The notes below the pieces were generated by a model. That model made no database searches. It was not told where the DNA came from and saw only the letters and a program-made list of their open reading frames with translations. A stretch of DNA of 64,000 bases from Hydrogenophaga sp. (lineage in GTDB: Bacteria > Pseudomonadota > Gammaproteobacteria > Burkholderiales > Burkholderiaceae_C): the NCBI RefSeq assembly GCF_036675665.1, contig NZ_JAKFEO010000015.1:70889-134888 (forward strand), given 5' to 3'. How positions within the stretch are numbered: the first letter of the stretch is position 1; every line of letters begins with the position of its first letter. A program made the translations under genes and the position numbers. Of the stretch, positions 38,224 through 64,000 are shown one piece after another.

Positions 38224-38244
38224 GGATGGCATTGTGATCAACGG

Positions 38245-38327: not shown

Positions 38328-38334
38328 AAAACGT

Positions 38335-39675: not shown

Positions 39676-39689
39676 GTCTTGTCTCCTCG

Positions 39690-39723: not shown

Positions 39724-39756
39724 TGGGTTCAGGCCAAGGCGATTCGGGCCCGGGCT

Positions 39757-41604: not shown

Positions 41605-41675
41605 GTTGATGCTCCTTCGGTTGATCGGTTGGGGTCAGAGCACATCGCTTTGCGAGGGGTCTGACCCACAAGGTT

Positions 41676-42152: not shown

Positions 42153-42287
42153 CGTTGTGTCTCCGTGTGGGTAACAGACGCGGTGCGCACGAACAGCGCC
42201 TATGCACATCTGCTCATATGATTTTTTGTGTCTGCCGCCATTTCAGGTTCAGGGTTTACCCGTGTTTATGGAACGCTGCGCGAAATA

Positions 42288-42302
42288 GTCTCAGATTGAG
42301 AC
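42288..42302. promoter_or_regulatory. perfect 15-bp palindrome in aorA / xdhC divergent region (candidate operator)
   Basis: GTCTCA-GAT-TGAGAC sits in the relatively AT-rich 259-nt intergenic region between 42152 and 42412. Confidence 0.3.
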
Positions 42303-42411
42303 AAGCCACAACGCGGCGCGCCAGGCCCGCTTCGTGGCATGCTCTTCCTCGCTGGTGGTGACCGTTCCCTCCAGTGCCATTCATTCACCCTGAAAACACA
42401 CCAACTTCCTC

Positions 42412-43503
42412 ATGGAAAACCTCGACGTCACCGTCCTGCGCACGCTGCACGGCTGGCGCGCCCAGGGCCAGCGCGCCCTGCTCGCCACCGTGGTCCGCAC
42501 CTGGGGTTCGTCACCGCGCCCGGTGGGCTCGATCATGGCGCTGTGCGAGACCGGCGCGGTGGTCGGCTCGGTCTCGGGCGGCTGCATCGAGGACGACCTG
42601 ATCTACCGCTACAGCCGCGCGCACACAGCCCCCGCCGGCGCGGCACCCATGGCGGGCATCACCCACGAGATCCCCGACGGCGCGCCCGAGCGCGTGAAGT
42701 ACGGCGTGAGCGCCGACGAAGCGCACCGCTTCGGCCTGCCCTGCGGCGGCACGCTGGAGCTGGTGCTCGAATTCAACCCGGACGCGGCCTCGCTGCTCGC
42801 GCTGGTGCAGACCCTGGCCGACGGCCAGATGGTGCAGCGGCGCACCGAGATGGCCAGCGGCCGCGTGGAGTTGCGCGCGGTCACCGCGCCCTCGCCGCTG
42901 ATCGACGACAGCGAGGTGCTCGCCAACACCTTCGGCCCCGAGTACCGCATGCTGCTCATCGGTGCCGGCCAGCTCACCGAATACCTCGCCACCATGGCCC
43001 TGTTCAGCGGCTTCGCGGTCACCGTGTGCGACCCGCGCGAGGAATACCGCGCGGCCTGGCAGGTGAGCGGCGTCACCCTGCTCACCGAGATGCCCGACGA
43101 CGTGGTGCGCGACTTCAAGGTCGACCGCCGCAGCTGCGTGATCGCGCTCACCCACGACCCCAAGCTCGACGACCTGGCCCTGCTCGAGGCACTGGAAACC
43201 GAGGCCTTCTACGTGGGTGCCATCGGTTCGCGGCGCAACAACGAGGCGCGCCACGCCCGCATGATCGAGCACTTCGACCAGACGCCCGAGAGCCTGGTGC
43301 GGCTGCGCGGGCCGATCGGCATCTACATCGGCAGCAAGACCCCGCCCGAGATCGCGGTGAGCATCATGGCCGAGGTGCTGGCGGTGAAGAACGGCGTGCC
43401 GCTGCCGCGCGACATGGACGTGACCCACGCCAAAAACGCGCTGACAGACGTCACCGCCGAGCCGTCGGGCCCGGCCTGCTTTTCCCCCACCACCGCCCGG
43501 TGA
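42412..43503 (+). CDS. XdhC/CoxI-family molybdenum/tungsten-cofactor insertion chaperone
   Basis: A 363-aa ORF. The N-terminal XdhC_CoxI region is LATVVRTWGSSPRPVGSIMALCETGAVVGSVSGGCIEDD. The Rossmann-like C-terminal part is LLIGAGQLTEYLA. Confidence 0.85.
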   Translation: MENLDVTVLRTLHGWRAQGQRALLATVVRTWGSSPRPVGSIMALCETGAVVGSVSGGCIEDDLIYRYSRAHTAPAGAAPMAGITHEIPDGAPERVKYGVSADEAHRFGLPCGGTLELVLEFNPDAASLLALVQTLADGQMVQRRTEMASGRVELRAVTAPSPLIDDSEVLANTFGPEYRMLLIGAGQLTEYLATMALFSGFAVTVCDPREEYRAAWQVSGVTLLTEMPDDVVRDFKVDRRSCVIALTHDPKLDDLALLEALETEAFYVGAIGSRRNNEARHARMIEHFDQTPESLVRLRGPIGIYIGSKTPPEIAVSIMAEVLAVKNGVPLPRDMDVTHAKNALTDVTAEPSGPACFSPTTAR

Positions 43504-45865: not shown

Positions 45866-47386
<1,521 letters not shown>

Positions 47387-47586: not shown

Positions 47587-48465
47587 TCAGGGCGCGGTGA
47601 GCGTCATGCCGTGCTGCCTGAAGATCGCGAGCAACTCGCCGCTGCCGCGGATCGATTGCAGGGCGGCTTCCAGCGCCTGGCCCAGGTCCTTGTTCTCGGC
47701 CTTGATCGCCATGCCCACCGGCCAGCCGTTGTCGGGCAGGCCGCTGAGCGCCAGCGGCGTGAGGCGGTATTGCCCCGGCCTGACCTCGGCGCGCGAGAGC
47801 ACCGACTCGGCTTGCGCGCGCGTCACGTAGGCCGCGGCGGCCTTGCCCTCCAGCAGGGCCTGCACGGCTTGCGTGCCGGTGTTGTGGATGCCGACCTGCG
47901 TGCGCAGCAGGCCGCCGCTGTAACCCATGAGCGCGCTGGTGGCCCCGGCGCCGCGCTCGGCCGCGAGCTGAAAACCCTTGAGATCGTCCGGGCTGCTCAC
48001 ATCGGCAATGCGCGAGGTGTCATACACGAGCACCAGCGACTGGCGCATGTAAGGCGCCAGGATCAGCACCTGGCGGTTGCGCGCCATGAGGTATTTGTCG
48101 CCCGGCACCTGCAGCATCACGTCGGCCGGGCCGTAGCCCAGGTAGTGACCACGCCAGACCATGTTGCGCAGATCGTCGTTCATGTTCTCGCCCGCATCGA
48201 ACGGCAGCAGCGCGAGCTTGAGATCGAGCTGTCTGGCCAGCGCGGTGGCGATCGACACGTCCAGCCCCTGCACGTCGTTGGCGGGGCCGTCGGAGAACGG
48301 CGCGTTGTCCTTGTAGACCGCCACCTTGAGCACGCCGCTGGCGCGGATCTTCGCCAGATCGCTCAGTTCGGTCTGCGCCTGCGCCAGCAGCGGCATGCCT
48401 GCCAGCAGGGGCAGCAGGCCGGCCAGGATCTGGCGGCGATCCAGCTGTCTGTTTTTTTCTGTCAT
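47587..48465 (-). CDS. quinoprotein-dehydrogenase-associated periplasmic substrate-binding protein (MoxJ-like)
   Basis: Lies inside ORF 47587..48684(-), with the start at MTEKNRQLDRRQILAGLLPLLAGMPLLAQA (Tat/Sec-type signal, cat 48463-48465). The fold looks like a type-3 SBP (GVLKVAVYKDNAPFS). Confidence 0.75.
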   Translation of the reverse strand: MTEKNRQLDRRQILAGLLPLLAGMPLLAQAQTELSDLAKIRASGVLKVAVYKDNAPFSDGPANDVQGLDVSIATALARQLDLKLALLPFDAGENMNDDLRNMVWRGHYLGYGPADVMLQVPGDKYLMARNRQVLILAPYMRQSLVLVYDTSRIADVSSPDDLKGFQLAAERGAGATSALMGYSGGLLRTQVGIHNTGTQAVQALLEGKAAAAYVTRAQAESVLSRAEVRPGQYRLTPLALSGLPDNGWPVGMAIKAENKDLGQALEAALQSIRGSGELLAIFRQHGMTLTAP

Positions 48466-48511: not shown

Positions 48512-49003
48512 TCACTGTTCGCGGCGGGTTTCGAGGTAGGTCTTGATCGACCAGATGGCTTCCTGCGTGAGCGTGCCTTCAAAGGGCGGCATGTACACAC
48601 GGCCATCGCGCACGCGGCCACGGCGCACGGTGGCCACGTAGAACTCGTCCATTTCCTTGTAGCAGGCGGCCTTCCTGGCCGCATCGGCCATGCCGGAGCA
48701 GTCGCTGTCGAACTTGCGCAGGTCGGGCGACATGCCGCCCGAGATGGCTTCCAGCCCGTGGCAGCGGGCGCAGTTCTGGTTGTAGGCCGAGGTGCCGATG
48801 CGCAGCGCTTCCTTGTTGGCCGGGCCGGTGCTGAACGGGTTGGCGTCCAGCCACTTGGCGCCGAGCTGCGGCAAGGTGCTGGTGTCCACCGATTGCGGGA
48901 TCACGTCGCCGTGGGCCATCACGGCGGCCACGCCGCATGTCACGGCCACGGCCAGCAGGCCGCGAGCGGCGCGCTTCGAGAGAGAAAAGGATCGGGTTTT
49001 CAT
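48512..49003 (-). CDS. c-type cytochrome, alcohol/methanol-oxidation-associated (ExaB/MoxG-like)
   Basis: Lies inside ORF 48512..49036(-), with the start at MKTRSFSL (cat 49001-49003). It has a signal peptide and the heme motif CARCH. Confidence 0.8.
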   Translation of the reverse strand: MKTRSFSLSKRAARGLLAVAVTCGVAAVMAHGDVIPQSVDTSTLPQLGAKWLDANPFSTGPANKEALRIGTSAYNQNCARCHGLEAISGGMSPDLRKFDSDCSGMADAARKAACYKEMDEFYVATVRRGRVRDGRVYMPPFEGTLTQEAIWSIKTYLETRREQ

Positions 49004-49151
49004 CGCGAGGTCTCCAGGGTGAAAAGGCGGGTTCACCGGGGCTGGTCAGCAAGAAGCAGGCCTTCCACCAAAAACCGGACAGCCACCACCCACGTGTTCC
49101 AAATTGCATCAGTTGCACAGTCCGTCGTCGCGACGCGTGACACACCCTCTT

Positions 49152-49166
49152 GCTCAACTGGTGCCT
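49152..49166 (-). promoter_or_regulatory. sigma-54-like promoter candidate upstream of cytochrome c / SBP genes
   Basis: The reverse complement is AGGCACCAGTTGAGC (GG-N10-GC spacing correct, with GGCAC at -24 and GAGC at -12). It lies about 150 nt upstream of the ATG at 49003. Confidence 0.4.
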
Positions 49167-49295
49167 TCTGGACCACCTTTTCACCGGAAGCAGCAGGCCG
49201 GCAAATTGCTACCCAGGCACGGGCACATCCGGCCCGGGTTGTTGCACACCGGGATTACCAGTGTTGTTTCCCGGGACAGTTATGAAGAAAATTGC

Positions 49296-51491
<2,196 letters not shown>

Positions 51492-51492
51492 G

Positions 51493-52491
51493 TCATTGCC
51501 CCGGTCCACGCTCCATCCACACCGGCTCCAGTTCGCGCCACGCGCGCTGCACATTGAAGCCCTGGCGCTGCGCGTAGCCCGCCCAGTTGGCGTACGCAGG
51601 CATGGCGATCAAAGCGCTCTCGCCCGCATGACGACCTTCGTCCATCGCCGCCAGAACGCGCGCGCGCAGCTCGGCGAGGTATGCGCGGGTCGCCACCACC
51701 GCCGGCGGCAGCGCCCCGTCGTCCCAGGTGCTGGACACCGTGTTGCCGATCACATGCCTCGGCCGCAACGCAGCGATGCGGTCCAGCGCCAACAACCACG
51801 CGTCCACCCCACCCTGCGCCAGCTCGGGCAGGCGCTGGTTCACCACCAGCCCGCCGGCCCACACCACGCGGCTGGCCTCGTCCCACAGCACCAGATCGCT
51901 CTCGGTGTGGCCCGGCGCCGGTAGCAGCACACGCAAGGTGTGCGGGCCCACGCGCAGCAGCTCGCCGGACATCAACACGCGGCTGGGCAGCACGATGCCC
52001 GTGCCCGCCATCGCACCCTGACCAGCGCGCTCACCCAGGCTGGCCAGGCAGGCCGGACAACGCTGCCGCATCGCACTGCGCGTGCCTTCGCTGGACAGGA
52101 TCTCCAGCTGGCCCGCCGCCAGCCGGTCGGCAAACGCCGAGTTCGCCAGCACGTTCTCGGCGTGGGCGTGGGTATTGACCACCCAGCGCACCTGCGCGCC
52201 GAAGCGGCAGGCCAGCGAGTCGCGCACACGCAGGCCGTGGCGGTGGCTCGGGCCGGGGTCGATCACCAGGGCTTCACCGCCCGAGACCACCACCGAGGTG
52301 GGCACCACATGACCGGCATTGGCGGCCGATACCTCACCCACCACGTCGGGCGGCCACACCCACACGCCGGGCACCACCGCTTGCCACGGCACCGCGTGGG
52401 CGGCGCTGCAGTCGGGCCTGGGTGCGGTGGAGGCACAGCCCATCAACAGCGCGAGCAAGCCCGCCCCCAACGCGCGGCGCAGGCCGTTCAT
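51493..52491 (-). CDS. metallo-beta-lactamase-fold lipoprotein ('quinoprotein relay system zinc metallohydrolase'-like, member 1)
   Basis: This is the C-terminal 332 aa of tracked ORF 51493..53442(-), with the start at MNGLRRALGAGLLALLMGCAS (lipobox LMGC, cat 52489-52491). Its motif VNTHAHAEN stands in place of the canonical HxHxDH. Confidence 0.8.
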   Translation of the reverse strand: MNGLRRALGAGLLALLMGCASTAPRPDCSAAHAVPWQAVVPGVWVWPPDVVGEVSAANAGHVVPTSVVVSGGEALVIDPGPSHRHGLRVRDSLACRFGAQVRWVVNTHAHAENVLANSAFADRLAAGQLEILSSEGTRSAMRQRCPACLASLGERAGQGAMAGTGIVLPSRVLMSGELLRVGPHTLRVLLPAPGHTESDLVLWDEASRVVWAGGLVVNQRLPELAQGGVDAWLLALDRIAALRPRHVIGNTVSSTWDDGALPPAVVATRAYLAELRARVLAAMDEGRHAGESALIAMPAYANWAGYAQRQGFNVQRAWRELEPVWMERGPGQ

Positions 52492-53582
52492 GCGAGCGCC
52501 CTGCGCACGCTCTTGCGCAGGGCGCTCAGCATGTCGGGCTCGTGGCCCAGATGGCCGCTGTGCGGCTCCACATGCACCACCGCCCCGCCCGCGGCGCGGC
52601 CCAGCGCGGCCCAGCGCCGGCTGTTGGCGGGGGGACAGATCGCGTCGAAGCGGCCGTGCACCCAGTCCACCGGCAGGCCGTGTCGAGCGGCCTGCAACAC
52701 GCCTCGGTCGAGCTGGCCAGAGCGCACGAAACCGCCGTGGCGCAGGTAGTGCGCCTGGATGCGGAATTTGCCCAGCGCGTTGCGGTCGGCGCGGGTTTTC
52801 CCGGGTCTGTTCAGCCGGGCGATGGCACGCTTCTCGGCCTTGCGCAGGCTCGCCCATTCGCGCCGGATCGCCGTCGCCAGGCGCGGTGTGCCCAGCGCCG
52901 CATGCAACAGGCTGCGCCGCTGGCTGCGCGCGGCCGATGCCGTTTCCAGCAATCCCCAGCCGCGCGCGGCGCGCAGCGATGCCACACCGGGTGTCCCACT
53001 TTGAATCAGTTGTGTCAGGCGCTGCAACGCAACAGACAACACGGCACCGGGAAAAACCGGCCACAGTGCGCCCCAGCCGAGCGAGTGCCGCACGCGCGAC
53101 GAGGGCAACAGCAAGCCGCCGAGCTCTCGCGCGCTGAGCGCAAACGCACCGCGCAACACCAGGCGTTGCACACGCAACGGGTGCGCCAGCGTGTAGGCCA
53201 AGGCCACCACCGTGCCCCACGAACCGGCCAGCACCGACCAGCGCTCCAGCCCCAGGTGTTCGCGCAGCGCTTCCATGTCGGCCACCAGCGCGGCCGTGTG
53301 GTTGCCGGCCGTGCGGCCCTTCGGGAGCGAGGCGCCGCAGCCGCGTTGATCGGGCGCCACCACCCGTTGCCGCGACAGGTCGAACGGCCTCAGCATGCCG
53401 GGCTGGCAACTGCTGCCAGGACCACCGTGCAGCAGCAGCCACGACTCACCCTCTGGCGCCCCCACAGCGCGCCAGGCCATGCGGTGCAGGCCGCCCAGCG
53501 GCAGGTGTTGCGGACGTGGCCACGCGGGGCTGGCCACCGGTGGGGGTGGCACAGTTTTCGTGGCATCGATATTGCTATTCAT
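52488..53582 (-). CDS. alpha/beta hydrolase, proline-iminopeptidase-like (S33)
   Basis: Lies inside ORF 52488..53663(-), with the start at MNSNIDATK (cat 53580-53582). It has HGGPGSS (oxyanion), the nucleophile elbow LAGSWGT, and a C-terminal SGHLGH. The ATGA overlap with the downstream MBL gene suggests coupling. Confidence 0.8.
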   Translation of the reverse strand: MNSNIDATKTVPPPPVASPAWPRPQHLPLGGLHRMAWRAVGAPEGESWLLLHGGPGSSCQPGMLRPFDLSRQRVVAPDQRGCGASLPKGRTAGNHTAALVADMEALREHLGLERWSVLAGSWGTVVALAYTLAHPLRVQRLVLRGAFALSARELGGLLLPSSRVRHSLGWGALWPVFPGAVLSVALQRLTQLIQSGTPGVASLRAARGWGLLETASAARSQRRSLLHAALGTPRLATAIRREWASLRKAEKRAIARLNRPGKTRADRNALGKFRIQAHYLRHGGFVRSGQLDRGVLQAARHGLPVDWVHGRFDAICPPANSRRWAALGRAAGGAVVHVEPHSGHLGHEPDMLSALRKSVRRALA

Positions 53583-53657
53583 GAGGGGCGGCTTGTGGCA
53601 ATGGTGCTGGCGAGCTTGCAGACATGTTTCGTGCCAACCCATTATTGGAGACCTTCT

Positions 53658-53732
53658 ATGCAATGGACGACCCCCGCCTTCACCGACCTTCGCTTCGGCT
53701 TTGAAATCACGATGTACATCGCCAACCGCTGA
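53658..53732 (+). CDS. pqqA: pyrroloquinoline quinone precursor peptide PqqA
   Basis: A 24-aa ORF, MQWTTPAFTDLRFGFEITMYIANR, with the conserved E-x3-Y (E16, Y20). GGAG lies 7 nt upstream. It is hidden at the end of the spurious tracked ORF 52422..53732(+). Confidence 0.92.
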   Translation: MQWTTPAFTDLRFGFEITMYIANR

Positions 53733-53751
53733 TCTGCATCACTCGGTTCGG

Positions 53752-53785
53752 GGCGCACGGGTGAACAACGCGTGCGCCTTTTCAT
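53752..53785 (+). terminator. attenuator/terminator hairpin between pqqA and pqqB
   Basis: GGCGCACG-ggtgaacaacg-CGTGCGCC followed by TTTTCATT. Confidence 0.6.
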
Positions 53786-53806
53786 TGCTCTTTCAGGTGT
53801 CCTGAC

Positions 53807-54724
53807 ATGCGCATCCGTGTTCTGGGTTCATCGGCCGGTGGCGGCTTCCCGCAGTGGAACTGCAACTGCCCCAACTGCGACGGCTTGCGCCAGGGTCGCA
53901 TCCGGGCCACCGCGCGCACGCAATCGTCGATCGCCGTCACGGCCAACGGCCTGGACTGGCTGCTGGTCAATGCCTCACCCGACATCCTCACGCAGATCCG
54001 CGACACCCCCGATCTGCAGCCGGCCCGCGCCGTGCGCGACAGCGGCATTGCCGCGGTGCTGCTCATGGACGCGCAGATCGACCACGTGACCGGTCTCATC
54101 ATGCTGCGCGAGCGTGGTTCGAAGCTGCCGTTGCTGGCCACCCCCGAGGTGCTGTCCGACATCTCCAGCGGCTTCCCCATCACCGGCATCCTCTCGCACT
54201 ACTGCGGCGTGGCCACCACCGAACTGCCGTCGGACGGCCGCACCATCACGGTCGACGGCCTGCCCGGCATCGAGATGCAGACCGTGGCCATTGCCTCCAA
54301 GCCACCACCGTATTCACCCTTTCGCGGCAACCCGCGCGCCGGTGACAACATCGGCCTGGTGATCCAGAACCCCGCCACCGGCGCACGCGTGTTCTACGCG
54401 CCCGGCCTGGGCGCCGTCACACCCGAGCTGCTCACCCTCATGGCGAGTTGCTCGGTGTTGCTGGTGGATGGCACTTTCTGGACCGAAGACGAAATGATCA
54501 CGCTCGGCCTCTCGACGAAGAAGGCCGCCGAGATGGGCCACCTGCCGCAAAGCGGCCCGGGCGGAATGATCGAACAGCTGGACCAGCTGCCGCGCTCCAT
54601 CCGCAAGATCCTCATCCACATCAACAACACGAACCCGATGCTGATCGAGGATTCCGCCGAGCGCGCCAAGCTCACCCGCCACGGCATCGAGGTGGCGCGC
54701 GACGGCATGGACATCGTGTTCTGA
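53807..54724 (+). CDS. pqqB: PQQ biosynthesis protein B (MBL fold)
   Basis: A 305-aa ORF starting [28 protein letters not shown]. Confidence 0.93.
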
Positions 54725-54737
54725 CACCCACCACCCC

Positions 54738-55469
54738 ATGGACATCGCCACCACCCCACGCCCCCTCGCAGGCCTGCCCGCCTGGACACGCGACGAGTTC
54801 GAGGCACAGCTGCGCGACAAGGGCCGCTCGTACCACATCCACCACCCGTTCAACGTGCGCATGAACGCCGGCGGCTGCACGCCCGACGAGCTGCGCTGCT
54901 GGGTGGCCAACCGCTTCTATTACCAACTCTGCATCCCGCGCAAGGACGCCGCCATCCTGGCCAACATGCCCGATCGCGCGCACCGCCGCCTGTGGGTGGA
55001 GCGCATCCTCGACCACGACGGCCATGGCGACTACGAGGGTTCGGCCTGCGGTGGCCTGGAGGCCTGGATCCGGCTGGGCGAAGCGGTGGGCATCGAACGC
55101 GACGACCTGCTCTCGCTCCAAGGTGTGGCGCCCGCCGTGCGCTTTGCCTGCGACGCCTATGTGAACTTCGCAGCCCAGGCACCGTGGCAGGAAGCCGTGT
55201 GCTCATCGCTCACCGAGATGTTCGCCCCGCAGATCCACAAGGACCGTCTCGCCAGCTGGCCCACGCACTACCCCTGGATCGAAGCCGACGGCCTGGGCTA
55301 TTTCCGCAAGCGCATACCGCTGGCCGGGCGCGACGTGGAGCACGGCCTGCAGGTCACGCTGGACCACTTCACCACACGCGCCGCGCAACACCGCGCGCTC
55401 GACATCCTGCAGTTCAAGCTGGACATCCTCTGGAACATGCTGGATGCCATCGAGAAAGCCTGTCAATGA
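54738..55469 (+). CDS. pqqC: pyrroloquinoline-quinone synthase
   Basis: A 243-aa ORF showing [32 protein letters not shown]. Confidence 0.95.
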
Positions 55470-55476
55470 ATGAAAG

Positions 55477-55559
55477 CCCCCCTGCGCCGCTTCGCGTCTT
55501 CCCCCCGCAGGGGGACCACACCTGCGGCCTGGCAAAGCCAGTTCCGTGGTGTGTGCTGG
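55477..55559 (+). repeat. double-hairpin intergenic repeat, copy B (inside pqq operon)
   Basis: cccccctgcgccgcttcgcgtcttCCCCCCgcaGGGGGaccacaCCTGCGGCCTGGCaaaGCCAGttCCGTGGtgtgtgctgg. It fills most of the unusual 153-nt gap between pqqC and pqqD. Confidence 0.7.
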
Positions 55560-55622
55560 TCTTGAGACCTCTTCCTGCCCGCTGTATCTGCCGTTTGCCA
55601 GCACTTTGACTTGAGCACCTTC

Positions 55623-55874
55623 ATGAATCATCCCAAGCTCTCGCGCCGTTTCCGCCTGCAGTACGAGGAAGCGCAGACGCGCTGGGTGCTGCTCTACCCC
55701 GAGGGCATGGTGCAGCTCAACGACAGCGCGGCCGAGATCCTCCAGCGCTGCGACGGTGAGCGCAGCGTGGCTGAGATTGTGAGCGAGCTGGAAGCTGCGT
55801 TCTCGGTTCAAGGCCTCACGCCGCAGGTGGAATCTTTGCTGGAAGAAGGAGGTCGCCGTGGCTGGATCGACTGA
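55623..55874 (+). CDS. pqqD: PQQ biosynthesis peptide chaperone PqqD
   Basis: ORF 55611..55874(+), where the tracked start is a TTG. The likelier start is the ATG at 55623, giving MNHPKLSRRFRLQYEEAQTRWVLLYPEGMVQLNDSAAEIL. Confidence 0.85.
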   Translation: MNHPKLSRRFRLQYEEAQTRWVLLYPEGMVQLNDSAAEILQRCDGERSVAEIVSELEAAFSVQGLTPQVESLLEEGGRRGWID

Positions 55875-57027
55875 GTTCGCGCCGGTCTCCGAAGCGCTCG
55901 CCATGCTGGCCGCGAAAACGCACCCGGCCGGCCCACCGCTGTGGCTGCTGGCCGAGCTCACCTACCAGTGCCCGCTGCATTGCGTGTTTTGCTACAACCC
56001 CACGCAACACGCGCACATCAGGAACGAGTTGACCACCGCGCAGTGGGTCGACGTGATGCGCCAGGCGCGCAAGCTCGGTGCCGCGCAGCTCGGCTTCTCG
56101 GGCGGTGAGCCGCTGGTGCGCGACGACCTCGAAGAACTGGTGCAGGAAGCGCACGCGCTGGGCTACTACACCAACCTCATCACCTCCGGCGTGGGCCTGA
56201 ACGAAGCGCGTGCACAGCGTTTGAAGGACGCCGGGCTGGACCACATCCAGCTTTCGTTCCAGGACAGCACGCGCGAGCTCAACGACTTCCTGAGCCACAC
56301 GCGCACCTTCGAGCTCAAGCAGAAGGTGGCACGCCTGATCAAGGCGCACGACTGGCCGATGGTGATGAACTGCGTGCTGCACCGGCACAACCTGCCGCAC
56401 GTGGGCGAGATCATCGAGATGGCGCTCGCGCTCGATGCCGAATACCTCGAACTCGCCAACACGCAGTACTACGGCTGGGCCTGGATCAACCGGGACCACC
56501 TCATGCCCACGCACGAAGCGCTGATCGAGGCCGAGGCCGTGGTCAACCGCTACCGCGAAACCATCGGCCAGCGCTGCAAGCTGCTGTTCGTGGTGCCTGA
56601 CTATTTCGAACAGCGCCCCAAGGCCTGCATGAACGGCTGGGGCTCGGTGTTCCTCTCGGTCGCGCCCGACGGCGTGGCCATGCCCTGCCACAACGCGCGC
56701 GACCTGCCCGGCCTGAAGCTGCCCAACGTGCGCGACATGGCCTTGGCCGACATCTGGCGGAAGAGCCAGGCCTTCAACGCCTTCCGTGGCGAAGACTGGA
56801 TGAAGCCGCCCTGCCGCACCTGCGACGAGCGCCACAAGGACTTTGGCGGCTGCCACTGCCAGGCCTTCCTGATCACCGGCGACGCCACCCAGGCCGACCC
56901 GGTGTGCAGCAAATCACCGCACCACGACAAGGTGGTGCAACTGGTGAAACAGGCACCCGCGCAGCGCCACATTCCCATCGTGTTTCGCGGCGACACCGCG
57001 TCGCGCGCATTGCACCCGCAGGCCTGA
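55858..57027 (+). CDS. pqqE: PQQ biosynthesis radical-SAM enzyme PqqE
   Basis: A 389-aa ORF (GTG start, 17-nt overlap with pqqD). It has the radical-SAM motif CPLHCVFCYN and a C-terminal SPASM Cys cluster. Confidence 0.93.
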   Translation: MAGSTEFAPVSEALAMLAAKTHPAGPPLWLLAELTYQCPLHCVFCYNPTQHAHIRNELTTAQWVDVMRQARKLGAAQLGFSGGEPLVRDDLEELVQEAHALGYYTNLITSGVGLNEARAQRLKDAGLDHIQLSFQDSTRELNDFLSHTRTFELKQKVARLIKAHDWPMVMNCVLHRHNLPHVGEIIEMALALDAEYLELANTQYYGWAWINRDHLMPTHEALIEAEAVVNRYRETIGQRCKLLFVVPDYFEQRPKACMNGWGSVFLSVAPDGVAMPCHNARDLPGLKLPNVRDMALADIWRKSQAFNAFRGEDWMKPPCRTCDERHKDFGGCHCQAFLITGDATQADPVCSKSPHHDKVVQLVKQAPAQRHIPIVFRGDTASRALHPQA

Positions 57028-57102
57028 GCGCCTGGGCATTCGTGCCCTTCGTGGCTTGCCACCCACACATGGCCTGGGCTCGGCGCCGCATGCATGCGCC
57101 AC

Positions 57103-57116
57103 GGCACGCGCATCGC
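57103..57116 (+). promoter_or_regulatory. sigma-54-like promoter candidate upstream of the orphan 573-aa gene
   Basis: GGCACGCGCATCGC corresponds to cGGCACG-N4-TCGC against the consensus TGGCACG-N4-TTGC, with correct GG-N10-GC spacing. It lies 38 nt upstream of the ATG at 57154, leaving a short leader with AAGGAG. Confidence 0.4.
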
Positions 57117-57153
57117 TCCCAAACTGAAAACCCCTCAATTCCAAGGAGTTTTC

Positions 57154-58875
57154 ATGATCGACGGCGCAGAACATTTTCACTACCTCGGCATGGCCCCGCG
57201 ACACCACAGCGTGCTGATGGTGTTTCAGGAAGGTGTGCTCATCCTCGACAGGGACCAGCCGGGCTGGGGCTGCATGTCGCCATTGACACTGGATCGGTTG
57301 ATGTCCGACTCGCCCGCCCATTCACCCTCCGGCTCCCGCTCCGGCAACGGGTCCTCGCGAAGCGACAGCGATGTCATCGACAGCCTCTCCGAAAGCGAGT
57401 TCAGCGCGGACAGCTCCGCCAGCACTTCCTCCTCACGCTCGGGTTCGGCATCGCCGGCCGCATCGCGGCCGGGCAGCCCGGCAACACCCCGCAACGGCCC
57501 GGACGCGCGACCCCATCCAGGGTGGTCCCCGTCCGGGGCGCTTCTGGGCTGGCACCCGTGCGAGGCCGTGGTGCACGTCGGTCCGGTGACCCTCAGGGCC
57601 ATCAACGCCTACAAAGCGCTCCAGGGCCCCGACGAACTTCAGGCCTTCGTGGCGCAGCTCAAGGGCGGCCACTGGAACCCGCAGCCGGTGGGCAGCCCGG
57701 GCGATGCCACGATGGTGGCCTTGCAGATGTTCGGCCAACTGCAGGTGATGCTCTGGGACGGCACCTGGCATGCCGCGGGCAACGTCGAGCACCAGCAACA
57801 AGCCATGACCGCCCAGCACGCCTGCCAGCTGGTGGCGAACTCGGTGGTGGCCCAGGTCTGCAGCCTGGCTCTGGTGCCGCACGCCGAACGCAGCGATTAC
57901 CTCGCCCACGTGCAGTCGGGCGCGATCTCGGTGATGGTCTTCGACCAGGGCCTGCTGGTGCGCTCGCACCCCGACCCCGCGCTGGCGGGCTGGCACGATC
58001 TCGACGACACCACCCGCGGCGCCTTCGTGTCACCAGGCGACGCCAACATGATCGAACTGGCCTGCCGCACGAACTACCCGCGCGAGAACAGCATGTTCCA
58101 GACCTTCTTCATCGGGATGATGGACGTGATATCCGACGAAGGTCCCTTCGTGGCGGCGATCTTTTCGCACAAGACGCGGCGCTGGTCTCACATGCGCCTG
58201 GACATGCCGCATGTGCAGTTGCCGAACGACCCCACAGGCCCCACGCCGGCGGCCGTGATCCAGACCTTGCGGCAGGCACGCCCCGCACCGCTGCACGATC
58301 TGCAATCCTCCAGCGGACCCGTGCGGCTTTCCAGCGGCGCCTGGCAGGTGCCGCTCTTCCTCGGCGCGATCCAGTGCATCGATGCCAGTGTGGACGTGCC
58401 AGGGTTGATCGGCACCCATTGGCACGACACCTTGCAGCCGGTGATCGAACGGCAGTTGGTTGCGCATCACGCACAAGAGGCGGCCTGGCTGGCCAGTGGC
58501 GTGATCAAACAGCCGATCGACCGCCTGATCGACCTCACGCGACGCGACCTGGCCCTGCGCCGGGACGAGGTGTGGGTGATGTGGCCCGTGGAACTGCTCG
58601 ACGATCTCCTGAAGACGCTGGCCCCGCAGGACAAGACACGCGTGATCCACGCCCCCAAGGCCGCCGACGTGGAACTCGCGCTGGGGCAGAAGGCCTGCAC
58701 CTTGTTCGTCTTCCAGACCGCCGGGCAGCCCAGCCAGTCCGTAGCGCTGGCGCAAGGTAACCGATGCTGGAGCGGTCGCGAGCACTTCAGCCTGAAGGAG
58801 CTGAAAGCGCGCGTGACCAAGTCCCTGGCCGGCGGTCCGGGCGAGCATCTGGTGGCGCTGGCCTACGTGGTGTAG
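57154..58875 (+). CDS. orphan hypothetical protein, 573 aa, with Ser-rich disordered segment
   Basis: Lies inside ORF 57094..58875(+). The ATG at 57154 is preceded by AAGGAG 7 nt upstream. Composition is balanced (D, E, K, F, I, M and W present), unlike the competing frames. Residues ~50-120 read SDSPAHSPSGSRSGNGSSRSDSDVIDSLSESEFSADSSASTSSSRSGSASPAASRPGSPATP. No family was recognised. Confidence 0.7.
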   Translation: MIDGAEHFHYLGMAPRHHSVLMVFQEGVLILDRDQPGWGCMSPLTLDRLMSDSPAHSPSGSRSGNGSSRSDSDVIDSLSESEFSADSSASTSSSRSGSASPAASRPGSPATPRNGPDARPHPGWSPSGALLGWHPCEAVVHVGPVTLRAINAYKALQGPDELQAFVAQLKGGHWNPQPVGSPGDATMVALQMFGQLQVMLWDGTWHAAGNVEHQQQAMTAQHACQLVANSVVAQVCSLALVPHAERSDYLAHVQSGAISVMVFDQGLLVRSHPDPALAGWHDLDDTTRGAFVSPGDANMIELACRTNYPRENSMFQTFFIGMMDVISDEGPFVAAIFSHKTRRWSHMRLDMPHVQLPNDPTGPTPAAVIQTLRQARPAPLHDLQSSSGPVRLSSGAWQVPLFLGAIQCIDASVDVPGLIGTHWHDTLQPVIERQLVAHHAQEAAWLASGVIKQPIDRLIDLTRRDLALRRDEVWVMWPVELLDDLLKTLAPQDKTRVIHAPKAADVELALGQKACTLFVFQTAGQPSQSVALAQGNRCWSGREHFSLKELKARVTKSLAGGPGEHLVALAYVV

Positions 58876-58944: not shown

Positions 58945-59517
58945 TCAGCGCTTGCCGCCACCACCACCGTTTCCACCCCCGTTGCCGCCACCACCGCCGT
59001 TGCCCCCTCCCTTGCCACCGCCTTTGCCACCGCCTTTGCCAGCTCCCAGGCCGCCCTGAGCACCCACGGACAGGCCGGGACCGATGGACGCCGACGCCAC
59101 CGTCGAGCGGCTCGTGGCGGCGGGGGAGGACTTGGTCGTCTTCTGCGACTTCGCCGCGGCAGCAGCGCGCGCGTCGTCCGCGTTCTTTGCCTGGTTGGCG
59201 TCGCTCACCACATCACCCAGGCGCAAGCCCAGCGAATTGGCAATCGCACCCCAGCCCATGCCGCTGTCGCGCAGACCCTGCACGCTGCTGGTTGCCGTGC
59301 CCAGCTGGGCGCTGGTGGGGTTGGTGATGCCTTGCTTGGCGAGGTCGGCCTTGGCGATGTGGGTCGCAAAGTCCTGCTTTGGCGCGGCCGCGGTCGTGGT
59401 GGTCGGCGTGGTGGTGGTCACCGTCACGCCAACGGTCGTCTGCGCGAATGCTCCGGTCGCCGCGAACAACGCGACGCACACGCCCGTCTTGAGCAAAAGG
59501 GGATGGGCAAATTTCAT
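58945..59517 (-). CDS. secreted hypothetical protein with Thr-rich N-terminal segment and poly-Gly (GGGK/GGGN) C-terminal tail
   Basis: Lies inside ORF 58945..59550(-), with the start at MKFAHPLLLKTGVCVALFAATGAFAQT (signal peptide, cat 59515-59517). It shows TVGVTVTTTTPTTTTAAAP and ends GAGKGGGKGGGKGGGNGGGGGNGGGNGGGGGKR. Confidence 0.7.
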   Translation of the reverse strand: MKFAHPLLLKTGVCVALFAATGAFAQTTVGVTVTTTTPTTTTAAAPKQDFATHIAKADLAKQGITNPTSAQLGTATSSVQGLRDSGMGWGAIANSLGLRLGDVVSDANQAKNADDARAAAAAKSQKTTKSSPAATSRSTVASASIGPGLSVGAQGGLGAGKGGGKGGGKGGGNGGGGGNGGGNGGGGGKR

Positions 59518-59682
59518 GAACGGCTCCTGAGTTGTTGTGTCACGGCCCATGCTAAGGCGGCCATGTACCTGGGAGCACGCTGAATGGTTACCAGCGGTAG
59601 CTTTGAGCCACCAGAAGTCAACCGCGTGTGTGCCAGCGCACGCTCGTCATGCCACACCAGCGCCTTCGCTCGGTGCGCGCCG

Positions 59683-60003
59683 TCATGGCTTGACGGTCAG
59701 CACCCAGGTGGAGAGGGTCTTGAGGTCGTCCGTGCTCAGGCTCGAGTGCGCGGGCATGGGAATGCGACCCCACTTGCCCTTGGAGCCGTTTTGAATCGAT
59801 TGCGCGAGCGACGCGGCGGCGTCTTTCTCGGTCGCGTATTTGTCGGCGATGGCGGCAAAGGCCGGGCCCACCACTTTTTCGCCATTGGCATGGCATGAGT
59901 AACAACCGCTGGCCTTGGCCAGGTCGGGAGCGCCGGCCAGATCGGCTTGCGCGAAGGCGCTGGCGCTGGTGATCAAGGTCGCGATGAAGAAGGTCGAGCG
60001 CAT
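59683..60003 (-). CDS. small soluble class I cytochrome c (c551/c552-like)
   Basis: Lies inside ORF 59683..60063(-), with the start at MRSTFFIATLITSASAFA (cat 60001-60003). It has the heme motif CYSCH and the distal Met region WGRIPMP. Confidence 0.85.
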   Translation of the reverse strand: MRSTFFIATLITSASAFAQADLAGAPDLAKASGCYSCHANGEKVVGPAFAAIADKYATEKDAAASLAQSIQNGSKGKWGRIPMPAHSSLSTDDLKTLSTWVLTVKP

Positions 60004-60088
60004 GGCAGGTCCACCTGAAAACTGAAAGGTCCAAAGAGAAAGGTGCCGGCCCGGTGCGTGCACCGCACCTGGCCGACACCCCGGGCGA

Positions 60089-61816
60089 TCACTTCATCAG
60101 CTTGAAGGTCCAGACGGAGCCGCCCTGTTCGAGGAAGTTGACCTTCTTGGCCACTTCACCGCCCCACAGCGGCACGGCACCGCCCCAGCCGGAGACCACG
60201 CTCACGTACTGCTCGCCACCTTCGGTCCAGGTGATGGGAGGGGCCACCACGCCAGAGCCGGTCTGGAACTGCCACACCACCGTGCCTGTCTTGGCGTCGG
60301 CGGCCTTGAGGTAACCCTCGGGCGTGCCCCAGAACACCAGGTCGCCGGCGGTCAGCACACCACCCCACAGCGGCGCGCTGTTCTTGACTTCCCAGGCCAC
60401 CTTGCCGGTCTTGGGATCGATCGCGCGCAGCGAGCCGATGTGGTCGTCGAACAGCGGCTTGATGGTGAAGCCCGCACCCAGGAAGGCAGCGCCCTTCTTG
60501 TAGGTGATGGGCTCGTTCCAGATCTCCATGCCCCATTCGTTGGTGGGCACGTAGAACAGGCCGGTGCGCGGGCTGTAGGCCATGGGCATCTGGTTCTTGC
60601 CACCCAGGAAGCCGGGCGCGGAGAACACCGACTTGCCCTTGGCGCCGTCGCCGCCGGCAGCGGCTGCGGTCGGGTCGCCCGGGCGGTTGGTGTCGTCGAA
60701 GTTCGGCCGGCCGGTCTTCAGATCGATGCTGGTGGCCCAGGTCACCTTCTTCACGAACGGGAAGGCGTTGACCAGCTTGCCGGTGGTGGCGTCGTTCACA
60801 TAGAAGAAGCCGTTGCGGTCCGCCTTGGCGCCCATGCGCTTGCCGTCCATGTCGAAGGTGATGAACTCGTTCACACCGTCGTAGTCCCAGCCGTCGTTCG
60901 GCGTGTTCTGGTAGTGCCACACGATCTTGCCGGTCTTGGGATCGATCGCCACGGTGGAGGCGGAGTACAGGTTGTCGCCCTTGCGCACGTGGCTGTTCCA
61001 CGGGCCGGGGTTGCCGGTGCCGAAGTAGGCCAGGCCGGTCTTCGGATCGTAGGTGCCGCCCAGCCATGGGCTGGAGCCGCCGGTTTTCCAGGTGTCACCG
61101 GGCCAGCTGGCGTTGGTGGTGCCGGTGATGCCGTTTTCCTTGCCGTCCTTGAAGCCCATGTGGCCTTCGACCACGGGGCGCGACCAGACCATCTTGCCGG
61201 TGCGCGGATCGCGCGCTTCCACACGGCCGACCACGCCGAACTCACCACCGGAGACACCGGTCATGAGCAGACCTTGTGCGATCAGCGGTGCGGCGGTGTA
61301 GCTGTAGCCGGCGGCGTAGTCGTCGATCTTCTCGCGCCACACCACCTTGCCGGTGTCCTGGTCCAGCGCCACCAGTTGTGCGTCGAGCGTGCCGAAGATC
61401 ACCAGGTTGTCGTAGAGCGCGGCACCGCGGTTGATCACGTCGCAGCACGGCATGATGCCTTCGGGCAGGCGGTGCTCGTACTTCCAGAGCTTCTGGCCGG
61501 TCTTGGTGTCCACCGCGTAGATGCGCGAGTAGGAGGCCGTCACGAACATCTTGCCCTTGTTGACCAGCGGCTGCGACTGCTGGCCGCGCTGCTTCTCGCC
61601 ACCAAACGACATGGACCACACCGGCACCAGCTTGCTGATGTTGCGGGCGGTGATGCCGTTGAGATCCGAGTGGCGCTGACCCTGGGTACCCAGGCCCCAG
61701 CTCAACACGTTCTCGGGCGACTTGGCGTCGTCGGCAATCATGGCGTCGGTGACGCCCTGGGCGCCTGCGTGGGCCGTGGCGGCCATGATCATGAGGCTCA
61801 GTAGGGTGCGTTTCAC
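60089..61816 (-). CDS. PQQ-dependent alcohol dehydrogenase, type I quinoprotein, with lanthanide-type active-site signature
   Basis: Lies inside ORF 60089..61990(-). The GTG at 61816 is preceded by GGAGA and gives [21 protein letters not shown] (signal peptide). It has the vicinal disulfide PCCDV, W-motif propeller repeats, and [11 protein letters not shown] (D311-Y-D313; codons 60878-60886). Confidence 0.93.
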
Positions 61817-61927
61817 AGTGTGTCTCCTGCTCGTTCGTGGGTTGGATGGCTGCTGCCGTGCAACATGCGCGGCCGCTTGTGATGCCCTGCGCGACAGGTC
61901 AGTCGTGGGCTGCACGCGACTTGAATG

Positions 61928-61942
61928 GCAACATCTGTGCCA
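61928..61942 (-). promoter_or_regulatory. sigma-54 (-24/-12) promoter of the PQQ-ADH operon
   Basis: The reverse complement is TGGCACAGATGTTGC, an exact TGGCAC-N5-TTGC. It lies about 112 nt upstream of the GTG start at 61816. Confidence 0.75.
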
Positions 61943-62104
61943 GGGTTCGTGGTGCACCGCGCAGCGGTTTTTCCAAGGGTTTTCGAGCACCTGTTGCCGC
62001 GAAAAACGGGGGCCACTGCGCCATGCCGCCGGTGGCGGCTGTCACGTTGTGGCGAGAGTGTTCAAAAACGAATCACCGGCCGCCCGGCCTGCAACAGGCT
62101 GCGT

Positions 62105-63070
62105 TCAACGCCGTGTCGCGGGGCCGCTGAGCACCTGCTGCTCGTAGCGCGGGTACCACTGCGTGATGCTGCGGTGCAGCTCGGCCGGCTGGGCGGCCCA
62201 GGCCTGGAATCGCGCGGGCACCGGCAGGCGCAGCACCTCGCTCAGATCGAGCCCGCGCTCGGCGCTCTCGCGCATGTGCGTGGTGAGCCAGCGCAGCCAG
62301 TCGCGCGTCTGGTCCACGCCGCCCTGGCCGCTGTGCAGCGGACCGTGGCTGGGCACCACCAGCCGGATGTTCTCGGTGGTGATCCACCGCGAGAGCTTCG
62401 CCAGGCTGGCCTGCCACGCGTCAAAGTCGGCGTGCGGCGTGGTGGGCACGCGCTCGGCAAACACCAGGCCGCCGGCAAACAGAACGCCGGTGGTGTGGTC
62501 GATCAACACGAGGTCGTCGCTGGTGTGGCCGCTCAGGCGGCGCAGCTCCAGCTGGTGACTCCCGAGTTGAAACACGCCGGCCTCGACGGGTTGGCGCGAG
62601 GGGGTGGACTCGGTGCCCTTCATCCAGTCGCCACACAGGCGGTAGAGGTTGTCGGCGTAGGCGCGACCCTCGGCCTGCATGCCGCCGATGCTGCCGGGCA
62701 GCGCCTGCGTGGGGCGGTCGGCCCAGGCCTGGTTGCCAAAGAAGTGGTCGGGGTGCAGGTTGAGGCTGAGCACGCGCACCACCGGCTCGCGCGTGACGCG
62801 CTCGATGGCGCGGCGCTGCTGCTCGCCGTAGCCGCGCGATGGGCCGGTGTTGACCACCACCACGCCCGCGCCGGTGGCGATGAAGGCGGTGTTGATGATG
62901 TTGCAGCCGTTGGCGCGCGAGAAGTCGTCCACCGCGCCTTCCATGACCCAGGTGCGCTCGGCGATCTGGCGTGGGCGCAGGTCGTGGTCGAGGCGGACCA
63001 TGTCGGGCACGGGCTGCGCCATCGCGGCGCTGGCCCATGCCGCGGCCAGCCACGGCAGCAGGCTTCTCAA
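62105..63070 (-). CDS. metallo-beta-lactamase-fold periplasmic protein ('quinoprotein relay system zinc metallohydrolase'-like, member 2)
   Basis: This is the C-terminal part of tracked ORF 62105..63970(-). The TTG at 63070 overlaps the upstream stop (TTGA) and gives LRSLLPWLAAAWASAAMAQP (signal peptide). Its motif LNLHPDHF stands in place of HxHxDH. Confidence 0.8.
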   Translation of the reverse strand: MRSLLPWLAAAWASAAMAQPVPDMVRLDHDLRPRQIAERTWVMEGAVDDFSRANGCNIINTAFIATGAGVVVVNTGPSRGYGEQQRRAIERVTREPVVRVLSLNLHPDHFFGNQAWADRPTQALPGSIGGMQAEGRAYADNLYRLCGDWMKGTESTPSRQPVEAGVFQLGSHQLELRRLSGHTSDDLVLIDHTTGVLFAGGLVFAERVPTTPHADFDAWQASLAKLSRWITTENIRLVVPSHGPLHSGQGGVDQTRDWLRWLTTHMRESAERGLDLSEVLRLPVPARFQAWAAQPAELHRSITQWYPRYEQQVLSGPATRR

Positions 63071-63864
63071 GCGCTCACCTCGGCGTCGATGCGGTTGCCG
63101 TTGTTGTCGCGCCCCAGCAGCCGGAAGCCGCTGCCGGTCTGCGGCGGCAGCTCGACCGTGATGAGCGGGTTTTCCGACACCGGTTCGTGCAGCGCCAGGC
63201 GCCACCAGGGCACGCCCGCGCCGTCCACCAGTTGCAGCTGTTCGATGTAGAAGGCCGGGATGCCGGCGACCAGGCCGGTGTCCATGGGGTGCATCACGCG
63301 CACGCGCAGGCGGCGGCTGCCTTCGAGCACGTTGTTGAAGAAACGCGCCTGCACCTGGTTGAGCGTGCGGCTCCACGAACCATCGGCGCGCGTGGCGCCC
63401 GGCACCGTGCAGCCACCACCGGCCGCCTGCACCCAGGTGCTGCCCACGTGCCAGGCGCCGTCGCGCGTCTGCACCAGGGCGCGCACGGGCGAGGCCTGCT
63501 CCATGCGGATGCGAAACGCCAGCATGGGCAAGGCCTTGAGTGGTTCGAACTCCAGCACCTCGCGCACCGGGTTGCGGTCCACCACCACCTGGATGCGCGC
63601 CACGCCACCGCCGGTGTTGCCGAGCGCACGCGCGTCCACCAGCAGCGGCACGTTCATCGCATCGTCGGCAAAGGTCGGGCCGTTCACCACCACGGCGCTG
63701 GAGAAGCGCATGGGCGCGTCGCCCAGGTACTGCTTGCGCAGGCCGGGCCACTGCATGGAGCCCAGCGGGTCGCCGCCGGTGGGGTCGTCGGTGGCCCACA
63801 GCGCAGTGCTCGCCGCGCCCAGCGCAGCGCCCAGGAACAGGCGGCGGGTGTTGTCTTGTGACAT
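63067..63864 (-). CDS. quinoprotein-dehydrogenase-associated SoxYZ-like fused carrier protein
   Basis: A 265-aa ORF with the Tat signal MSQDNTRRLFLGAALGAAS. The SoxY-like half ends in WVQAAGGGCTVPG (Cys152, codon 63409-63411). A SoxZ-like Ig-fold half follows. Confidence 0.75.
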   Translation of the reverse strand: MSQDNTRRLFLGAALGAASTALWATDDPTGGDPLGSMQWPGLRKQYLGDAPMRFSSAVVVNGPTFADDAMNVPLLVDARALGNTGGGVARIQVVVDRNPVREVLEFEPLKALPMLAFRIRMEQASPVRALVQTRDGAWHVGSTWVQAAGGGCTVPGATRADGSWSRTLNQVQARFFNNVLEGSRRLRVRVMHPMDTGLVAGIPAFYIEQLQLVDGAGVPWWRLALHEPVSENPLITVELPPQTGSGFRLLGRDNNGNRIDAEVSA

Positions 63865-63873
63865 GAAGAACTT

Positions 63874-64000
63874 TCAGGAACCTTTTTGGCGGATCCAGCC
63901 GCGCTGCGGGTCGTAGCCCCACAGCGCCAGCACAAAGAAGGCGATGCTGCACACCACCACCACCGCCCACGACGTGGCGTTGAACTGCCCATACATCGCA
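63874..64000 (-). CDS. 3' end of a membrane-protein gene (or a 40-aa ORF from the ATG at 63996); runs off the right edge
   Basis: The reverse complement reads (A)MYGQFNATSWAVVVVCSIAFFVLALWGYDPQRGWIRQKGS-stop, with one hydrophobic helix. The frame stays open to the window edge, and identity cannot be determined. Confidence 0.35.
   Translation of the reverse strand, partial: AMYGQFNATSWAVVVVCSIAFFVLALWGYDPQRGWIRQKGS

Follow-up and report, generated by a model that had tools for sequence, protein, structure and literature searches.

What does a carrier protein of the sulfur-oxidation (Sox) type do beside an alcohol dehydrogenase? The question is raised by two genes close to one end of a 64-kb stretch of Hydrogenophaga sp. 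DNA (contig NZ_JAKFEO010000015.1, positions 70,889 to 134,888; the whole stretch is referred to here as the window). The first encodes a predicted periplasmic fusion of SoxY-like and SoxZ-like halves, 265 residues long and here called the carrier (63067-63864, (-) strand; ATG at 63864, stop at 63067). The second encodes a periplasmic protein of 321 residues with the metallo-β-lactamase (MBL) fold (62105-63070, (-) strand), and a gene for a dehydrogenase dependent on pyrroloquinoline quinone (PQQ) follows. An earlier reading of these letters (the original prediction) had proposed that the aldehyde product is captured on the carrier thiol and released by MBL proteins. The coordinates and sequence features that it gave for the carrier, the MBL gene, the codon of the carrier cysteine and a sigma-54 promoter all checked out. 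The pair itself consists of orthologues of families already named and already flagged as uncharacterised, and so is no new kind of system. The evidence favours, tentatively, a sulfur-linked cargo over the aldehyde.

The carrier, its partner and their distribution

The carrier scored 217.7 bits against NCBIfam family TIGR04557 (SoxYZ-like carrier), above the curated equivalog cut-off of 140. Pfam matched residues 44-152 to SoxY (1.4 × 10−27) and residues 185-262 to SoxZ (2.4 × 10−5), and a family profile of 43 diverse homologues found both SoxY (4uwq_B, 3.9 × 10−22) and SoxZ (2.1 × 10−9) in the PDB. In an AlphaFold2 (AF2) model with a predicted local distance difference test score (pLDDT) of 91.2, the N-terminal domain matched Paracoccus SoxY (2oxg_Y) with a template-modelling (TM) score of 0.85, as determined with Foldseek. 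These data showed that the carrier is a single chain with a SoxY-like N-terminal half and a SoxZ-like C-terminal half, as had been proposed. An exhaustive search of 1.84 billion representative proteins returned 601 relatives, 71 of them at E ≤ 1 × 10−30.

The carrier open reading frame (ORF) begins with MSQDNTRRLFLGAALGAASTALWA, with T-R-R-L-F-L-G near the start, and its signal peptide places the predicted product in the periplasm. The proposal that this signal is of the twin-arginine translocation (Tat) type held for the window protein but not for the family. The twin-arginine motif was present in 96 of 120 close homologues and in 5 of 43 diverse ones, and was confined to a Comamonadaceae clade; relatives beyond the Comamonadaceae had ordinary signal peptides.

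Cys152 (codon TGC, 63409-63411, (-) strand) is the sole cysteine of the carrier and lies in an A-A-G-G-G-C-T-V-P loop between the two domains (motif WVQAAGGGCTVPG). In the family profile it aligned with the carrier cysteine, that is the terminal GGC, of SoxY in 4uwq, 2nnc and 2oxg. Conservation in orthologues, on which the original prediction had staked itself, was observed: the GGGC cysteine was kept in 65 of 71 diverse full-length homologues, down to ~25% identity, most of them without any other cysteine, and G150, G151 and C152 were invariant in the curated alignment A1. Judged by these alignments, Cys152 was shown to occupy the position of the substrate-carrying cysteine of SoxY and to be a hallmark of the carrier family. 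The motif is internal rather than C-terminal, with 113 residues after it. In the model, the last SoxY strand leads into the loop (residues 148-156, of slightly lower confidence) and the loop into the SoxZ domain, so that Cys152 is anchored at both ends.

The MBL gene is joined to the carrier gene by a TTGA overlap, its TTG start (63070) lying within the carrier stop codon, and a GAGGTG Shine-Dalgarno sequence was found 5 nt upstream. The encoded protein carries a Sec-type signal (...SAAMA/QP). It matched Pfam Lactamase_B and scored 405.6 bits against TIGR04558 (quinoprotein relay system zinc metallohydrolase 1; cut-off 300). Near-identical Hydrogenophaga proteins already bear the names of TIGR04557 and TIGR04558. 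That both families are named in annotation only, as had been stated, agreed with the literature, in which no biochemical study of either was found.

To place the pair in context, loci were compared from 80 Burkholderiales genomes and from metagenomic relatives (10 look-ups, several of them on short contigs). A genome scan with a narrow carrier alignment gave Burkholderiales alone, so that the taxonomic breadth rests on the metagenomic loci. The MBL gene directly followed the carrier gene in 78 of the 80 Burkholderiales loci, with the 4-nt overlap of stop and start in 77, which bore out the tight linkage claimed for the two. Among the metagenomic relatives, 27-40% identical, the genes either overlapped or lay within 7 nt of each other. 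The comparison showed that the predicted translational coupling of carrier and MBL spans distant lineages. Two apparent carrier-MBL fusions (P0157 and P0179) proved to be truncated-domain fragments, most likely frameshift read-through over the 4-nt overlap, and were therefore not taken as Rosetta-stone evidence.

As a two-gene unit, the pair was found to be coupled but not to form a free-standing operon. A PedC-like ABC-2 permease gene, of which the window contains the 3' end (63874-64000, (-) strand; 41 codons and a stop at 63874-63876, ending ...GWIRQKGS*), stops 9 nt before the carrier ATG, and the window edge is reached 136 nt upstream of the carrier. In Hydrogenophaga sp. Root209, the closest genome found, a carrier 98% identical is preceded in order by a TIGR03866 YVTN beta-propeller, a TIGR03863 binding protein and the PedC permease (L001:8741-9991; TIGR03861, 337 bits), with a TIGR03864 ATPase transcribed divergently. 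From the 9-nt gap and this gene order, carrier and MBL are the last cistrons of a pedABC-like transporter operon here.

The dehydrogenase gene (60089-61837, (-) strand) starts 268 nt beyond the MBL stop codon and encodes a PedH-like, lanthanide-type PQQ alcohol dehydrogenase (TIGR03075, 739.5 bits) with a vicinal Cys-Cys pair (PCCDV). Its best solved relative was PedH (6zcv, 812 bits), compared with 652 bits for the Ca-dependent ExaA, and its W-D-Y-D-G motif has the D-x-D form of PedH (6zcw, WDFDG) and not that of ExaA (1flg, WDFSG). By motif and by nearest relative, it is thus predicted to be of the PedH lanthanide type. Across the loci, all 61 dehydrogenases encoded directly downstream of the pair combined D-[YF]-D with a vicinal CC. 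Lanthanide-type enzymes made up 61 of the 69 nearby dehydrogenases with a readable motif, the other ~8 loci having only a Ca-type (D-F-S) enzyme nearby, and the CC pair was present in every nearby dehydrogenase readable in full.

Other arrangements were also found. PedF, a PedG-like gene, carrier and MBL stood in that order in L081, L089 and L090. In L087 the pair had pqqBCDE and a tandem rhodanese as neighbours, and the 18-kb contig encoded no dehydrogenase; in L091 the pair stood alone, next to a gene for a CXXCW rhodanese-like protein. This protein and its CXXCW counterpart in L090 scored above the TIGR03865 cut-off. Considered as gene context, these loci showed that the pair belongs to the accessory gene set of PQQ dehydrogenases. 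L090 also encodes a 162-residue exported protein with a ten-Asp run and an acidic tail (L090:10157-10645), between a PedB-like binding protein and a YVTN propeller; it is possibly a Ca or lanthanide binder. A NirA-like tail on the MBL of L091 (L091:10813-11904) lies at a contig end with adapter-like sequence (…EEHTSELQSH) and is probably an assembly chimera, not a real fusion.

The same domain architecture, in the same carrier-then-MBL order and directly before a PedH-type dehydrogenase, is found in Pseudomonas putida KT2440 as PP_2677 and PP_2678, of which the window genes are orthologues. The two loci differ in several respects. In the window the pair is on a pedABC-like operon with PedF and PedG 13 kb away, the carrier signal is of the Tat type, the MBL protein has lost two canonical ligands and gained Cys56 and Cys146, and no rhodanese like PP_2666 is near. 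A review of the ped cluster published in 2026 lists PP_2666 (rhodanese), PP_2677 (SoxYZ-like) and PP_2678 (SoxH-like) as uncharacterised, reports minimal phenotypes on alcohols in P. putida by transposon sequencing with random barcodes (RB-TnSeq) under lanthanide-free conditions, and suggests either a part in maturing lanthanide enzymes (their disulfide or cofactor) or the shielding of PQQ against sulfur nucleophiles (PMC12997753). No expression or fitness data for PP_2677 or PP_2678 were found in the supplementary files of two papers on the lanthanide response; the only related entry was PP_2666, lower with lanthanum.

The metal site of the MBL partner

The nearest relatives of the MBL protein by sequence or fold were 8d2z, an uncharacterised MBL from Burkholderia cenocepacia, class B1/B2 lactamases including CphA, the chlorothalonil dehalogenase Chd, and alkylsulfatases including SdsA1. 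The AF2 model, made with close homologues only, had a pLDDT of 81.4, with low confidence around residues 46-55, near Cys56. CphA (subclass B2) and 8d2z were the closest solved relatives (TM 0.73-0.81), at an identity of just 17-20%, and the window protein differs from both in carrying additional helical insertions and, at the C terminus, a helical extension of 60 residues. Nothing suggests a β-lactam substrate. The window protein gave no match to glyoxalase II (TIGR03413) or GloB at E ≤ 0.01, and neither the best 60 PDB matches by sequence to the MBL family profile nor the 50 listed Foldseek matches included glyoxalase II.

Ligand positions were mapped to class B numbering through HMMER alignments to CphA and 6xfr. 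The predicted positions in the window protein were N104, H106, D108, H109, H182, G201 and H242, corresponding to Asn116, His118, Asp120, His121, His196, Gly221 and His263. The complete binuclear set (HxHxDH, His196, Asp/Cys221, His263) is therefore broken at two places: the first His is replaced by Asn104 and the bridging Asp by Gly201. Asn116-x-His118-x-Asp120 is common to CphA and the window protein, but the latter lacks Cys221. These substitutions are typical of the clade. The motif N-L-H-P-D-Y was present in 76 of 80 MBL sequences from the loci (nearly all Burkholderiales), in which Gly221 was nearly universal, and a Cys56/Cys146 pair was present in 77 of the 80.

Among orthologues from outside the Burkholderiales, 7 of 8 had the full HxHxDH, GH[TS], (G/S)D, PGHG set and no cysteine pair. 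Ligand loss and the gain of Cys56/Cys146 thus coincide in the Burkholderiales clade, other lineages having neither. Distant orthologues also gave weak GloB matches (5.7 × 10−13 to 7 × 10−7). The comparison indicates that the family was ancestrally, as far as ligand residues can tell, a canonical binuclear enzyme whose site is degenerate in the Burkholderiales clade, which makes the label "zinc metallohydrolase" insecure for the window protein.

The MBL gene was also seen in states of decay. It is fragmented or rearranged in Hydrogenophaga sp. Root209 (L001:10795-11640) and reduced to a 66-residue remnant in Cupriavidus gilardii (L077:10789-10986), the carrier gene being intact in both.

Cargo and role of the carrier

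The closest precedents for a protein of this kind are the SoxYZ complexes of Paracoccus pantotrophus (2oxg) and Thermus (4uwq). These share with the window carrier the SoxY and SoxZ folds, a carrier cysteine at the homologous position after Gly-Gly, a periplasmic location and partner enzymes encoded next door. They differ in having a separate SoxY with a free C-terminal GGCGG arm, where the window carrier is a single chain with an internal GGGC-T-x-P loop, and in having soxAX, soxB and soxCD as neighbours. The window genes scanned included neither these nor others for sulfur oxidation, in agreement with the claim that no sox genes are nearby. SoxH, like the window MBL, is a periplasmic MBL-fold protein beside a SoxY-type carrier; the kinship rests on the NCBIfam family name, and the window copy lacks His116 and Asp221. 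Release of sulfate from SoxY has been put forward, though without direct proof, as a function of SoxH-type MBL proteins (PMC10045233, PMC11237559). SoxYZ fusions have been described beside PQQ alcohol dehydrogenases and soxH, or beside xoxF, in symbionts and in bacteria that do not oxidise thiosulfate (PMC11237559), and fusions of this kind also occur in Hyphomicrobium (PMC11582611).

By analogy with these systems, Cys152 would bear a covalent adduct, as in the Sox system, and the MBL partner would act on the loaded carrier and restore the free thiol. The adduct would most simply be sulfur-linked, as a persulfide, an S-sulfonate or a mixed disulfide; this is suggested by the SoxYZ homology, by the rhodanese-type partner in other lineages and by the SoxH sulfate-release proposals. 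The pair would then maintain the quinoprotein, either by protecting or repairing PQQ, an electrophile, and the strained vicinal disulfide in the face of sulfur nucleophiles, or by aiding maturation, and would not be a step in carbon flux. In the Burkholderiales the chemistry of the MBL protein may depart from that of a canonical binuclear hydrolase, the metal site being degenerate. We put the probability of a sulfur-linked adduct with a maintenance role at roughly 0.4. The CXXCW third partner points to sulfur rather than acyl chemistry, and the maintenance role is consistent with the SoxH proposals, the minimal alcohol phenotypes and the pqq-adjacent loci that have no dehydrogenase. The MBL-fold alkylsulfatases among the fold neighbours were also counted in its favour.

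Several observations weigh against a sulfur-linked adduct with a maintenance role. An internal, doubly anchored loop limits how far Cys152 could reach into the active site of a partner. With Asn116 and Gly221, and Tyr121 in most of the clade, the window MBL protein may not be a hydrolase at all, and the MBL gene is decayed in 2 of ~90 loci and missing in 1. A rhodanese or CXXCW homologue was found neither in the 64-kb window nor, across the 80 Burkholderiales loci, within 10 kb of the pair. Many organisms, for example P. aeruginosa, have the same vicinal-disulfide dehydrogenases without the system (PMC12997753). The adduct, its source and its target are, moreover, all things that we infer.

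The vicinal disulfide offers another target for the same thiol. The carrier, with the CXXCW protein where there is one, could form the disulfide of the dehydrogenase during maturation or re-form it after accidental reduction, leaving the MBL protein as a scaffold or regulator. The CC pair in every nearby dehydrogenase readable in full, the recurrence of a CXXC-type motif protein as partner and the preference of the review for disulfide formation or cofactor stabilisation in lanthanide enzymes (PMC12997753) all agree with such a thiol-disulfide relay, and a degenerate metal site is compatible with a non-catalytic partner. A carrier with one cysteine cannot, however, transfer two electrons alone, and the CXXCW gene was not found in the window. 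Ca-type enzymes such as ExaA make the same disulfide without these genes (PMC12997753), and most of the distant MBL orthologues have complete catalytic ligands, which argues for an enzymatic partner. We consider this relay unlikely, if still a serious candidate.

A relay of aldehydes was the mechanism put forward in the original prediction: the aldehyde would react with Cys152 to give a thiohemiacetal, the PQQ dehydrogenase would oxidise this to a thioester, and glyoxalase-II-like MBL proteins would hydrolyse it, so that aldehyde becomes acid in the periplasm. The scheme is chemically coherent. Aldehydes are oxidised by PedE and PedH, the pair is tightly linked to the dehydrogenase, and distant MBL orthologues share HxHxDH and the bridging Asp with glyoxalase II and match GloB weakly. 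The window protein itself, however, has no GloB match and lacks His116 and Asp221 (Asn104 and Gly201 standing in their place), its structural neighbours are lactamase-like, with glyoxalase II absent from the 60 best PDB and 50 listed Foldseek matches, and a rhodanese is the recurrent third partner. The pair is also found where no dehydrogenase is near, beside pqq or alone on its contig, and the fitness effects on alcohols are minimal in P. putida (PMC12997753). In the window, ExaC and an oxidoreductase of the aldehyde:ferredoxin oxidoreductase (AOR) type are already encoded, and a doubly anchored loop would have to extend to PQQ, which lies at the base of the active-site funnel. The aldehyde scheme is thus not supported and has a low probability. 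The persulfide or redox relay that the prediction had offered as alternatives fit the evidence better.

Of similarly low probability is a part in the handling of a lanthanide or other metal, in which the pair would help to deliver the lanthanide to PedH or control its insertion. The pair is co-transcribed with homologues of PedA1A2BC, a transporter required for lanthanide-dependent growth in P. putida (PMC6839425). The preponderance of lanthanide-type enzymes (61 of 69 readable nearby) and the change of two MBL ligand positions in the clade to the oxygen donors Asn and Tyr also agree with this idea. The invariant feature of the family, however, is a thiol, a poor ligand for hard Ln3+; some loci (~8) have only a Ca-type dehydrogenase nearby, distant MBL orthologues retain His ligands of the Zn/Fe type, and the rhodanese partner PP_2666 of P. 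putida was less abundant with lanthanum in one proteome table. A genuine sulfur-oxidation carrier, left from a residual Sox pathway that oxidises thiosulfate for energy, would account for the homology to SoxY, SoxZ and SoxH. It was rejected on hidden Markov model cut-offs and gene context and is very improbable. The carrier scored far under the cut-offs for true SoxY (TIGR04488, 54.8 bits against 125) and true SoxZ (TIGR04490, 23.9 against 76), its GGGC is internal where a C-terminal GGCGG would be expected, none of the window genes examined is a sox or other sulfur-oxidation gene, and the same fusion clades occur in bacteria unable to oxidise thiosulfate (PMC11237559).

A broader proposal was also considered, in which the SoxYZ scaffold, no longer part of sulfur energy metabolism, has been repurposed as a periplasmic protein-thiol shuttle dedicated to quinoproteins. 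Cys152 would there hold a non-canonical adduct, either an acyl or hemithioacetal group from an aldehyde or a group removed from the vicinal disulfide or from PQQ that has been damaged, and the MBL protein would discharge it. We think this doubtful; if true, periplasmic alcohol oxidation would include a covalent carrier pathway of a new kind. What probability remains falls to an explanation outside those listed.

The surrounding window and the meaning of the pair

Between the MBL and dehydrogenase genes lies a perfect match to the sigma-54 -24/-12 element, TGGCAC-N5-TTGC (TGGCACAGATGTTGC; 61928-61942, (-) strand), 91 nt before the dehydrogenase start at 61837. That strand of the window has only two occurrences of the pattern; the second perfect consensus (TGGCACCCAGTTTGC; 15069-15083, (-) strand) is far from the ped cluster. 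A weak terminator-like hairpin with a T-rich tail lies 17 nt past the MBL stop (62075-62088, (-) strand), but is only suggestive, since chance alone would give 1.3 sites of this kind in the region scanned and 2 were found.

Beyond the dehydrogenase is a gene for a small c-type cytochrome (59683-60063, (-) strand; Pfam Cytochrom_C), which follows the dehydrogenase in nearly all related loci. The pqqABCDE genes (53658-57027, (+) strand), with the PqqA peptide at 53658-53732, are in an arrangement conserved in related loci. Between pqqE and the cytochrome gene are two further coding regions: a 593-residue ORF (57094-58875, (+) strand) with strong coding bias and no Pfam or NCBIfam match, found only in the two closest genomes, and a gene for an exported protein that ends in GGGK/GGGN repeats (58945-59550, (-) strand).

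Divergent from pqqA is a gene for an alpha/beta hydrolase resembling prolyl aminopeptidases (52488-53663, (-) strand), ATGA-coupled to that of a second, divergent MBL protein (51493-52491, (-) strand), a predicted lipoprotein with the lipobox LLMGC. The latter had been counted as a second member of the relay. Its MBL fold was confirmed, but its scores of 138.5 bits against TIGR04558 and 120.2 bits against TIGR04559 were both under the cut-offs, so that membership of the relay families did not hold. Its ligand motif is H-A-H-A-E-N and it lacks His263; the two MBL proteins are thus degenerate in opposite halves of the site. The pair formed by the hydrolase and this MBL recurs beside pqqB in several genomes.

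Further along are a gene for a sigma-54 activator (49104-51491, (+) strand), the gene for the PedF cytochrome c550 (48512-49036, (-) strand; TIGR04494, 198.3 bits, cut-off 122) and, in the PedG position, that of a periplasmic binding protein (47587-48465, (-) strand). This last had been called "MoxJ-like", a name the analysis did not sustain: it is a generic member of Pfam SBP_bac_3, with just 33.7 bits against TIGR03871 (cut-off 212). The ExaC aldehyde dehydrogenase is encoded at 45866-47386. A tungsten-type aldehyde:ferredoxin oxidoreductase (39757-41634) lies in a cluster (37969-43503), adjacent to ExaC, with a MoaD-like protein and an XdhC-family maturation factor, and beside it is a PadH-like flavin adenine dinucleotide (FAD) subunit (38335-39756). 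ExaC and this oxidoreductase are two cytoplasmic aldehyde-oxidising systems by the periplasmic dehydrogenase cluster. The G+C content is 58-65% in the first 30 kb of the window, where rpsA and genes of a tripartite ATP-independent periplasmic (TRAP) transporter lie, and 65-70% in the ped/pqq half.

Alcohol dehydrogenases that depend on PQQ and lanthanides have a central place in methylotrophy, in the soil turnover of volatile alcohols and in Pseudomonas biocatalysis, and the carrier-MBL pair accompanies them across the Proteobacteria and beyond. The window is a compact example, with a transporter operon, carrier and MBL, then a sigma-54-driven PedH-like gene. What the locus adds is modest: the operon fusion with pedABC, the strict lanthanide-type pairing in this gene order, and the degenerate metal site of the MBL protein. 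Because the site of a presumed "metallohydrolase" is degenerate in one large clade, any mechanistic proposal must account for it. Identifying the cargo of Cys152 could reveal how these enzymes are matured or protected, a missing factor for the heterologous expression of lanthanide enzymes, or a new use of the SoxYZ principle.

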